A stretch of 64,000 nucleotides of DNA from Octopus vulgaris (taxonomy: Eukaryota): contig OX597829.1 of the NCBI GenBank assembly GCA_951406725.2, positions 30,938,001-31,002,000 on the forward strand, in the 5' to 3' direction. This document shows, in pieces, positions 21,739-31,130 of the stretch. The stretch's first letter is position 1. Each line of letters starts with the position of its first letter. The position numbers and the translations under genes are program-made. The notes under the pieces were generated by a model. It was not told the DNA's origin. It was given only the letters and a program-made list of their open reading frames with translations, and did not search any database.

Positions 21739-22433
21739 ATAATTAATTAATAAGGGTGAGAGAATTAGATACTAATTTAATAGTATATTTATTCCACACC
21801 AAGTGGCCTAGTGCTACGAGAAACCTGGATTATTATAATATTTTATAACATATTATAATATTTTCACAAAATAAATATAAGAGAGTGGTCACTATATTGA
21901 TCACTCTAGCACCAGTTAATCCAAAAGGTTTCAACCACGAAAATACATGTTTCCCATGAAAGCCAGTACGACTGTTAGCTCACACGGACAGGGCAAATAA
22001 AAAATAACAAAAATACAGATTATTTTGGGACAATTGTTTCGCTATTAATGAATTAAATGTAATATTACTTACAATAATCCATTTGTAGCTCGTCAGCCAA
22101 GACTATCTGGATGAAATCCACTCAATCACACGCCAGATTTTACCATAACGATAAATACGCGTGTGGTTCAATTGATTACATCCGACGTTATAATTCAAAT
22201 GCCCCAACCAACAGCGCGCCAAACTCTCACGGAAAACAAATACAGCATTTAGAAATAAATGCAGCATAATTATAATTAATTAATAAGGGTGAGAGAATTA
22301 GATACTAATTTAATAGTATATTTATTCCACACCAAGTGGCCTAGTGCTACGAGAAACCTGGATTATTATAATATTTTATAACATATTATAATATTTTCAC
22401 AAAATAAATATAAGAGAGTGGTCACTATATTGA
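21739..22433 (-). mobile_element. HHR-bearing retrozyme/Penelope-pLTR-like element, 1.3 tandem copies of a 533-bp unit
   Basis: 162-bp direct repeats at 21739-21900 and 22272-22433, identical by eye. Non-coding, with an intact HHR. Absent from the paralogous copies at about 26.9 and 28.6 kb. Confidence 0.85.
22017..22109 (-). ncRNA. Intact type-I hammerhead ribozyme
   Basis: Minus strand: ttgg-CTGACGA-gcta..tagc-GAAAcaattgTC-ccaa. Full consensus core, G-C closing stem II, palindromic stem III ACAATTGT, stem I extends to about 13 bp. Confidence 0.9.
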
Positions 22434-28276: not shown

Positions 28277-29328
28277 ATGTATGTATGTATGTGTGTATGT
28301 ATGTATGTATGTATGTATGTATGTATGTATGTATGTATGTGTGTATGTATGTATGTATGTATGTATGTATGTATGTGTGTATGTATGTATGTATGTATCT
28401 GTATGTATGTATGTATTTATGTATGTATGTATATATATATAAAATGGCGGTGCCCCAGCATGGCCACAGCTCATTAGCTGAAACTGGAAAAATCAAAATC
28501 AAAAATCATATATATATATATACATATACATATACATATATATATGCATACGTGTATATATGCATATATATATGTGTGTGTGTGTGTATGTATGTGTATA
28601 TATGTGTGTGGGTGTGTATATATATATTTATATATATATGTATGTATATATCATCATCATCATCATTATCATTATCATCATCGTTTAACGTCCGCTTTCT
28701 ATACTGGCCTGGGTTGGACGGTTTGACTGGGGACTGGCAAGCCAGGAGGCTACACCAGGCTCCAATCTGATCTGGCAAGGTTTCTACAGCTGAATGACCT
28801 TCCTAATGCCAACCACTCTCAGAGTGCAGTGGGTGCTTTTTACATGCCATTAGCATGAGAGCCAGTCAGGCAGTACTGGCAATGACCCATGCATGCATGG
28901 TGCTTATTGCATGCCAGTCAGGCAGCACTGGCATCAGCCACAACTACAATTTCCATTTGATTGTGATTTGATTTGATTTGATTTTGATTTTACTTGACTC
29001 AATAGATCTCCTCAAGCATGGCATGTCACCTGTTATGTGACACTGGTGTAGGCTAAGCTGTGATCTCATTTTACTTGCCAGGCCTTCTCAATCACAGCAT
29101 ATCTCCAGAGGTCTTGGTCTTTCGTCATTGTCTAATGTTTGAAGGTCATGCTTCACCACATCATCCTATGTCTTCCTGGATCTCCTTCTTCCACAGGTTC
29201 CTTCAACTGTTAGAGAGTGACACTTCTTCACACAGCTCTCCTTATCAATATGCAACACATGACCATACCAGCGCAGTTGTCTCTCTTGCACAACATGGTT
29301 GATGCTTCATATGTCAAACATTTCTCTC
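26641..29328 (-). repeat. Segmental duplication arm B-A-B, inverted relative to 20655-23231, including a large (TATG)n at 27733-28440
   Basis: 26780-27570 matches 28510-29264, and both are reverse complements of 21106-21740. Confidence 0.9.
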
Positions 29329-29523
29329 AGGCAAAATCTCATCATAGGAGTAGAAAAGATATACCATTGGGTTATTAGGTACTGTGTTTTCAAATCATTT
29401 CAGCAGTGTTTTCAAATCATCTAGGCCGACTGCTGAGATAATTTGAAAGCAGCACCTAATAACCTAATGGTATATCTTTTCTACTCCTCTGATGAGATTT
29501 TGTCTAATACAATGATTTAATTA

Positions 29524-30092
29524 ACGTAAGGGGTATCAGCCATCTGAATGTGGCTAGGCACTGGGAGGGGGTGGTGTTACTGATGCTTTTAACCCCAGGC
29601 GATCAACGTCACCAGAAGGACTTTAGACACTATCTCAGTGTCCTTGCCCCAGTGCCTAGCCACATTCAGATGGCTGATACCCCTTACGTTGTCGAGCAGT
29701 TACTGTTTATATCTCGTTCAGAGATTTATTATTGTTTTCAGACAGTTTTTCTACATCAGTGACAGTGGTTACTGTGAAAAACATTATATATTGTTTGTAG
29801 AGGGAATCCTTCATCGAAGAGCGGTACTTACCATACGTTGACAAGAGGCAATGACCTCGAAACTAGTCCGTATGTAGTACCCGGATCTTTGAGGGAGGAT
29901 GACCTCCCTTTACAAACAAACAAGGACACTGAGTTAGTGTCTAAAGTCCTTCTGGTGACGTTGATTGCCTGGGGCTAAAAGCAAAAGCATCAGTAACACC
30001 CCCCCCCCCCCCAGTGCCTAGCCACATTCAGATGGCTGATACCCCTTACGTTGTCGAGCAGTTACTGTTTATATCTCGTTCAGAGATTTATT
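29524..30092 (+). mobile_element. Nested retrozyme/Penelope-like element: inverted segment plus 1.24 copies of a 362-bp unit, 13-bp TSD
   Basis: 29524-29646 is the reverse complement of 29921-30051. 29647-29731 matches 30009-30093. TSD AATGATTTAATTA at 29511-29523 and 30093-30105. Confidence 0.85.
29832..29874 (+). ncRNA. Minimal hammerhead motif with two core substitutions, on a long rod (29791-29919)
   Basis: catacg-TTGACAA-gagg caatga cctc-GAAActagTC-cgtatg. All three stems are perfect. The core differs from CTGACGA at two positions. Confidence 0.75.
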
Positions 30093-30232
30093 AATGATTT
30101 AATTATTGTAATTTAATCTTTAGGCTAAATTGAAACAGCTGTAAGGGAATATGTCAGATTTTTGCAGTTAATAAATTATATTAATGCTACATCTCCATTT
30201 TCTAAATTTTCTTATATGTGTGTGTGTGTGTA

Positions 30233-31130
30233 CGTGTGGTGTGATCAATAAGTATCTGGACTGTTTCCGTAGTAATGAAGCTAAAATATGTAGAGTGAAG
30301 CTACTTGGCACAGATTGACCTTGAACTCTGCTGTGCATGTGCACTAAGTTTTAACATACTAACTGACTTCGTTGCTTACAGCAGTACTTGGAAGGAAGGT
30401 GTGTATTGTATGATTGTCGCATTGACCATGACAGAGAAAGTTGAGCAGAGAATCTGCATCTAATTTTGCCAAAAGCTAGACAATATCTGCTCAGAGGCCT
30501 ACAGAAAGTTTTCAAAAAGATTTCATCATTCTTGACACAATCAAGGAGATCTTGTGCAACTGAAACCCGAGTGTCTTTTTGGTCAGCTGAAAGCAGTCTT
30601 GGCACAAACTTGGCAGATATGCGTCTCATACCCAAGTCTTCAAGAGATAATGGACTGAACTGAACTGTAACTAATCTGCACATCCTCTGATACCTCACAG
30701 ATGGTGATTCAACAATTTCCCCTCAGAGCTGCACACGTATCTGTGATGTTTTTCTCATTTCTGTTGGTTGTGGATCTCACAGAACGTTCATCAATATCAA
30801 CATTTTTTTTGGTCATCTTGGAAACATCTAAACTACTCATACACTTGTGTGTGGCTCATACACTCCTCTCCATACACTTTCTGCAACATTGCATAGGCTT
30901 CTGAGCAGGTATCGCCATGACAACTTTCTCTGTCAAGGTCAATGCGATGATCACACACTACACACTTTCCTTCCAAGCACTGCTGTAAACAACGGAATTG
31001 AGCTAGAATGTTAAAACTTAGTGTGCATGCACAGCAGAGTTCAAGGGTAATCTGTGCCAAGTGGCTTCACTCGGCATGATTTAGCTTCGTTACTATGGCA
31101 ACAGTCCAAATACTTATTGATCAAACCTCG
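30233..31130. mobile_element. Non-autonomous mariner derivative made of two inverted 5' ends
   Basis: About 210-bp inverted arms and TA flanks. The minus strand encodes LGMRRISAKFVPRLLSADQK. Second copy at 60450-61352. Confidence 0.9.

Follow-up and report, generated by a model that had tools for sequence, protein, structure and literature searches.

The nested locus

Why does one hammerhead-bearing element lie inside the hammerhead of another, and why exactly at the apex of its stem II? The question is raised by a 64,000-nt stretch of Octopus vulgaris DNA (hereafter the window, to which all coordinates refer unless stated otherwise), in which a 569-bp inner element (29524–30092) interrupts the long stem II of the hammerhead that characterizes another, outer family. 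The nesting of one hammerhead element inside the hammerhead of another is real, and the locus comprises the following features:

29322..29406, minus strand: inverted 5' copy of the outer element's own start (inverted repeat of 63 nt, 89%)
29430..29523, plus strand: left half of the outer element, including the 5' arm of the long stem II and the left target copy
29511..29523, plus strand: left copy of the 12–13 bp target duplication, present singly in intact outer copies
29523..29646, minus strand: inverted piece of the inner element (monomer positions 191–322), ending at the fixed inverted end of its family
29647..29730, plus strand: partial upstream tandem copy of the inner element, identical to 30009–30092 at 84 of 84 positions
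29731..30092, plus strand: full 362-nt monomer of the inner element, a member of a tandem-forming non-coding family
29832..29874, plus strand: type I hammerhead motif of the inner element, with a U3-A8 core and a predicted cut after 29868
30053..30092, plus strand: 40-nt tail of the inner element, present at one end only
30093..30105, plus strand: right copy of the target duplication
30106..30214, plus strand: right half of the outer element, from the 3' arm of stem II to the short-form 3' end

The identical 13-mers at 29511–29523 and 30093–30105 had been taken in the initial annotation for a 13-bp target-site duplication. A true target duplication they are, but its exact length has to be given as 12–13 bp (11 at the strict minimum), because one A is ambiguous at each junction. 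CTGATGA (29489–29495) and GAAACAGCTGTA (30132–30143) lie where they had been placed, and the insertion does fall at the apex of stem II, about 15 nt from the core; the apex is, however, that of a 63-nt extended arm and not of a canonical short loop II. The inverted arm of the outer element (29322–29406) contains the complement of stem I, of CUGAUGA and of the 5' arm of stem II. In sequencing run X1, the flank 29264–29482 was identical, and one contig ended at 29523, possibly being derived from a paralogue.

Repeats of very high copy number that terminate in (ATC)n (28660–29320) flank the outer element, and a MITE-like element with inverted arms of 133 nt and 74 nt (86–89%) lies directly to the right of it (30238–31127). 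Elsewhere in the window (22103–22018, minus strand) we found a third type I hammerhead motif, with the core CTGACGA at 22096, a long AT-rich stem II, a palindromic helix III and GTC; it lies in a partial tandem whose unit measures ~533 bp.

The outer family and its hammerhead

In the outer hammerhead, stem I is formed by TCCT (29485–29488) with AGGG (30144–30147), the core consists of CTGATGA (29489–29495), GAAA (30132) and the cut triplet GTA (30141–30143), and helix III has two pairs with a palindromic 4-nt loop, AGCT. This arrangement follows the type I pattern, CUGANGA...GAAA...NUH with helices I–III, and the motif can be provisionally assigned to that type. The Rfam scan of the window at the gathering threshold returned 0 matches, i.e. 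neither hammerhead was detected. CTGATGA alone occurs in the window at the chance level (15 seen vs 13.4 expected), and therefore it is the family copies rather than the motif that prove the outer hammerhead.

The search of the genome (2.8 Gb, 227 contigs) with the right half of the outer element as a query yielded 667 candidates. In 26 of the best 30 of these loci, the two halves are directly joined and share a single copy of the target; the remaining four are the window itself and three loci that correspond to one other split copy. Alignment of 141 outer loci to a natural intact copy revealed 139 distinct segments that cover the whole outer hammerhead without interruption. Since the halves are joined and the target is single in the intact copies, the repeated 13-mer represents a true target duplication, and the initial proposal that removal of the inner element with one copy of the duplication rebuilds a complete hammerhead is borne out; the directly joined genomic copies that it anticipated are present.

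CTGATGA is conserved in 99 and GAAACAGCTGTA in 94 of the 139 segments. The pairs of stem II are mostly kept at 86–99%, with one clear double change (T-A in 83 vs C-G in 24), and the third pair of stem I is a C-A mismatch in 100 of 135 segments, the full 4-pair stem being found in the window copy and in L002. Outer copies in the 143 loci of 3–4 kb analysed below are single or form inverted pairs, and full head-to-tail units are not evident among them.

The inner element and its family

The invader had been credited with a hammerhead of its own in the same orientation, and it indeed carries one on the plus strand, albeit with a U3-A8 core instead of CUGAUGA. Its stem I (29832–29837 with 29869–29874) encloses the core TTGACAA (29838–29844), GAAA (29859) and the cut triplet GTC (29866–29868), and its helix III is palindromic with a 2-nt loop. 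With the 3-8 pair and three helices, this motif too would be classified as a type I hammerhead. The core variants among 31 segments are U3-A8 (18), U3-G8 (11) and C3-G8 (2), the palindrome of helix III being kept. A U3-A8 core is reported for hammerheads of Penelope-type elements (PLEs) in the available text of PMC4209133.

The invader family has 2392 candidates in the genome, including tandem arrays of 2–3 full 362-nt units at L039, L040 and L046. The invader in the window contains one full unit only and is therefore a monomer by the rule given in the accessible part of 10.64898/2026.07.22.740005. Inverted copies of the family extend no further than monomer position 322, whereas forward copies reach ~362, which leaves a one-sided 40-nt tail; accordingly, the inverted piece in the window (29523–29646) is without this tail, and it is ~90% complementary to 29921–30052, with which it is predicted to pair. 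With its partial tandem, its inverted 5' copy and its 40-nt tail on one side, the invader has a PLE-type layout, as described in the available text of PMC8557442 (partial tandems, inverted 5' copy, one-sided tail of 30–40 bp). The outer element, which is 72% AT, also has the PLE-type build, with its inverted arm at 29322–29406 and with many inverted pairs across the family.

The invader belongs, like retrozymes, to the class of non-coding tandem units that measure a few hundred bp and carry one type I hammerhead apiece, and its 569 bp are far too short to accommodate an autonomous PLE's ORF with RT and GIY-YIG. Judging from their sequences, both the outer and the inner element would be consistent with animal non-LTR retrozymes or with solo terminal repeats of PLEs. 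The tail motif of the invader is common to otherwise unrelated elements (L284–L287, L294, L297–L298), a hint that several families may be served by a single helper enzyme.

A second insertion at the same bases

A further copy of the outer element, on contig C10 (80.78 Mb), is interrupted at the identical position. The insert is a 204-nt element of an unrelated family, here called family C; it lies in antisense orientation, with 12 identical duplicated bases. The three C10 matches represent a single event that has been rearranged and copied within a 4.7-kb inverted duplication. This duplication (L201, C10:80778500–80788400) shows 98% identity and includes a palindrome of 500 bp, at whose centre lies the junction of the family C inversion. 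Family C (reference copy L028:969–1172, minus strand) is very abundant, with at least 978 exact 3' ends, and has the hammerhead-like core GTGAACA; this core exhibits G3-C8, the reverse of the usual C3-G8, and is accompanied by a weak cut triplet. The second insertion by a third hammerhead family, in the opposite orientation and at the same 12 bases, is new here.

Exact-pattern scans of the genome for either half beside foreign bases (32 motif matches) identified only the window and the C10 event. The nesting screen covered 143 outer loci of 3–4 kb, a part of the outer family, which were selected either for their BLAST rank or because their anchor motifs were intact; most of a cluster of similar matches on C27 was left out. 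Both halves around an insert were found in 5 of the 143 loci, namely the window, C10, L073, L107 and L165. The insert in L073 is a different repeat situated 2 nt upstream of the site, that in L107 lies ~6 nt past the duplicated stretch, and that in L165 is in helix III; the inserts of L073 and L107 thus share the hairpin at other positions, and neither belongs to family C or to the family of the invader. The element within the outer stem II of L073 is similar to the (ATC)n-ended repeat of 28660–29320. Three further loci (L154, L144 and L139) stop near the site with no right half within ~10 kb, and were rejected as insertions. Recurrence at the exact site therefore amounts to 1 of 142 other loci, and this is the sole support for calling the site a hotspot.

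Target-site preference

Duplications of at least 10 bases were sought at terminal copies of the three families and were detected in 42 of 78 copies of family C, 30 of 59 copies of the invader family and 27 of 159 copies of the outer family; 13/42, 24/30 and 25/27 of them, respectively, were (TA)n. For family C, 40 of the loci were chosen with a lean against pure (TA)n, and its non-microsatellite duplications peak at 12 bp (13/29). The target model was built from those non-microsatellite sites with an exact 12-bp duplication, 14 in all, of which family C contributed 13 and the invader family 1; both nested events were excluded. At these 14 sites, A at −2 and T at +2 are found in 21 of 28 cases (p 4e-5), and C-1/G+1 prevails over G-1/C+1 by 11 to 2 (p 0.02). 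The resulting target pattern is symmetric, AY-N12-RT (AY, 12 AT-rich bases, RT), and in-phase (TA)n fits it as well.

With the target matrix, the nested site takes first place in 16 of the 27 intact outer copies that match a regular expression, its median rank being 1 among ~193 positions. The score of the site is a median 71-fold over background, equal to that of in-phase (TA)n, and belongs to the top 0.05% of non-microsatellite positions in the window. The nested site shares its rank with a mirror site 3 nt downstream, at which no insertion was seen, and the outer copy on C10 carries the better-scoring AC..GT form. Rank 1 is kept without the boundary-biased columns and with the flanks only. 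AT content alone was rejected as an explanation of the site, because it gives rank 8 with 20 ties and is weaker than the flank model. In the leave-one-out analysis, 5 of the 14 training sites scored at the background level.

The number of second hits to be expected was estimated by hand from ≥2,100 ends of family C (978 divided by 13/28) and ~400–700 outer copies, the latter range being based on two anchor lists whose overlap (~16) was counted by eye. A family C density derived from a 10-letter motif was at the chance level and was dropped. The estimate is ~0.0004–0.0005 under uniform insertion, ~8-fold more if AT content alone is considered, and ~0.03–0.06 with the target model; other PLE-type families would raise it. 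Sequence preference accounts for most, but perhaps not for all, of the coincidence, and some excess is left.

Proposed mechanism and candidate helper enzyme

In our opinion, the PLE-like invader was quite probably inserted by target-primed reverse transcription (TPRT) with the enzymes of autonomous PLEs, which cut a preferred sequence located at the apex of stem II. The hotspot is likely to be the favoured cut sequence of Penelope-type enzymes rather than ribozyme coding as such. What the sequences establish is the duplication, the two fixed ends of the element and the pair of boundaries common to both insertions. A dimer of the PLE RT/GIY-YIG protein would nick both strands 12 nt apart, and both 3' ends would prime reverse transcription at two fixed start points on the RNA, giving the tail end and the inverted end. 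The AT-rich inverted repeat at the apex would simply happen to spell the symmetric site, hence the apical insertion, and the same two nicks could serve both the sense insertion in the window and the antisense one on C10. According to the available text of PMC11167929, the Poseidon protein of Anolis, a predicted dimer, cleaves AT-rich DNA on both strands, starts reverse transcription at two RNA sites, which yields a tail, and does not require hammerhead cleavage.

Autonomous PLEs are abundant in the genome (4767 candidates, with open frames of 775 aa), and the 775-aa ORF scores above the Pfam cut-off for GIY-YIG and just below it for RVT_1. The cysteine motif before GIY-YIG suggests that these elements are probably Neptune-like. 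Those at L329, L335 and L323 are young, with some copies 4,271 bp apart, and have (TA)n ends. The 3' region of the autonomous PLEs showed no convincing DNA similarity to the three families in 30 loci among the 150 matches listed, and a 35-nt match at L318 is the sole tail-like match between autonomous PLE loci and these families. PLE fragments beside L026 and L125 were dismissed as a helper, being separated from the outer element by unrelated DNA. Pairing of the tail with the target is not relied on as a guide either: a few bases do match at both junctions, but priming without homology is reported in the accessible part of PMC11167929.

Folding of the split outer hammerhead

Is the outer ribozyme still able to fold, as had been suggested in view of the apical position of the insertion? 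The prediction for RNA 29465–30170 reveals a long duplex of the invader termini, which continues the outer stem II; the core-proximal part of this stem pairs at a predicted probability of 0.5–0.85, and forcing the whole outer hammerhead costs 9.2 kcal/mol vs 8.1 kcal/mol in the best of 8 intact copies (15.6–32.9 kcal/mol in the other seven). In RNA starting from 29320, all helices of the outer hammerhead are predicted at 0.00 and the forcing cost is 35.7 kcal/mol, the outer arm 29322–29384 being predicted to pair with the 5' half of its own hammerhead. According to these models, the outer hammerhead would misfold in read-through RNA because its own inverted arm captures the 5' half, and the suggestion of foldability holds, in prediction, for RNA starting after ~29385, in which the split hammerhead could refold.

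None of the modelled constructs has a strong stem I or helix III, and the predicted probability of helix III in monomers is 0.00–0.01, even in intact outer copies. Palindromic motifs with a short helix III often need dimers (PMC4209133, available text); the outer and inner helix III palindromes differ, so that no mixed dimer is expected, and neither motif has a tandem partner here. Invertebrate hammerheads reported as efficient in the accessible part of PMC7229834 resemble the form with a two-pair helix III and a tetraloop. Most likely, the nested copy arose in the genome by accident and is neutral, and the ribozyme-in-ribozyme arrangement is most likely a by-product.

Alternative explanations

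Could the enzyme recognise an extruded DNA hairpin or cruciform, the ribozyme stem-loops being targeted for their shape? The site lies within a predicted hairpin, 4 of the 5 nested insertions in the 143 outer loci fall within the 24-nt apical hairpin, and (TA)n targets are also able to extrude. However, comparison of 35 non-microsatellite targets of the invading families with shuffled sequences revealed no enrichment of hairpins (mean z −0.15, 1/35 below −2), and therefore sequence preference likely explains the hotspot; moreover, the site itself has z −1.45, the duplication is one base off the hairpin axis, and the primary sequence alone puts the site first. Of the properties initially ascribed to the insertion, target-primed insertion and the preference for AT-rich DNA are retained and the preference for hairpins is abandoned; targeting by shape appears distinctly improbable to us. 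A single random insertion into AT-rich DNA, with the second hit at the same site being a coincidence, would agree with just one independent recurrence among 142 other loci, with the 72% AT of the outer element and with the abundance of both invading families, but it is confronted with the ~0.0004–0.0005 second hits expected under uniform insertion, which AT content increases only ~8-fold, and with the exact register predicted by the model trained elsewhere, and we regard it as improbable.

Or perhaps the composite is a selected unit, i.e. a discontinuous hammerhead held by the invader duplex, with the two-ribozyme RNA processed or mobilised together? The modelled RNA 29465–30170 (outer stem II at 0.5–0.85; 9.2 vs 8.1 kcal/mol) would be compatible with such a role, as would the 4-pair stem I of the window copy, compared with the C-A mismatch in 100/135 family segments, and the discontinuous hammerheads with large loop insertions reported for Clec2 mRNAs in the available text of PMC2950038. 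Yet the composite was found once in the exact-motif genome scans and hence has not spread, the helices fall to 0.00 (35.7 kcal/mol) once the outer inverted arm is included, the differing helix III palindromes exclude a mixed dimer and tandem partners are missing, and just 1 of the 9 frog retrozyme dimers tested cleaved in vitro, as far as the accessible part of 10.64898/2026.07.22.740005 tells; selection of the composite seems very improbable indeed. A broader proposal, that PLE enzymes cut AY-N12-RT with a 12-nt stagger at the apices of long arms, and that hammerhead elements repeatedly invade each other's stem II while the host ribozyme stays foldable and active owing to the long duplex into which the invader closes, is in our view unlikely; if true, it would explain how discontinuous ribozymes, and the stem II arms that are so unusually long in these elements, can arise naturally.

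Relationship to known systems

With insertion by autonomous PLE enzymes at a favoured cut sequence as the preferred reading, the octopus elements can be compared with known systems. In the available portions of PMC7229834 and 10.64898/2026.07.22.740005, animal non-LTR retrozymes, which are proposed to be non-autonomous PLE derivatives, resemble them in having a non-coding tandem unit of 150–450 bp with one type I hammerhead, low GC and target duplications of >4 bp. The differences from these retrozymes are the U3-A8 core of the invader and the single or inverted copies of the outer family with its 63-nt stem II; neither nesting nor a target consensus is described in those portions. Similarities to the pLTR hammerheads of endonuclease-bearing PLEs (PMC4209133 and PMC8557442, both in their accessible parts) include the short palindromic helix III and the U3-A8 covariant core, and the PLEs themselves share the partial tandem with an inverted 5' copy, the one-sided tail of 30–40 bp and the (TA)n bias. 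Unlike in PLEs, no ORF is attached to the octopus hammerheads, and none of the autonomous PLE loci compared had a terminal repeat that would mark it as the parent.

The Poseidon PLE of Anolis carolinensis, as presented in the available text of PMC11167929, is similar in its use of AT-rich DNA, in the two RT starts that give a tail and in its insertion into the pLTR or elsewhere; it prefers an ATT motif, whereas the genomic sites in the octopus suggest AY-N12-RT with a 12-nt stagger. The hammerheads in Clec2 3' UTRs are comparable in that their core is split by a large loop insertion and might still fold (PMC2950038, accessible part). They were, however, sought with insertions in loop 1 or 3, and are conserved across mammals and active according to the same text, whereas in the octopus a mobile element interrupts stem II of a hammerhead that is single-copy in its split form and is only predicted to fold.

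Our literature search, which missed most subscription journals, found no paper on nested PLE-type retrozymes or on a PLE target consensus. The nested PLE-type retrozymes are known in kind, and transposons insert into one another as a matter of course; what makes the locus worth attention is a recurrence precise to the base, together with the symmetric 12-bp target model. The choice and cutting of targets by PLEs are poorly understood, a single element having been examined in vitro as a complete protein (PMC11167929, available text). Two unrelated families that entered the same 12 bases in opposite directions, together with the symmetric bias, provide a base-precise substrate and a testable cut geometry, and the locus offers a ready test of the survival of a hammerhead after a 580-nt insertion into its stem II.
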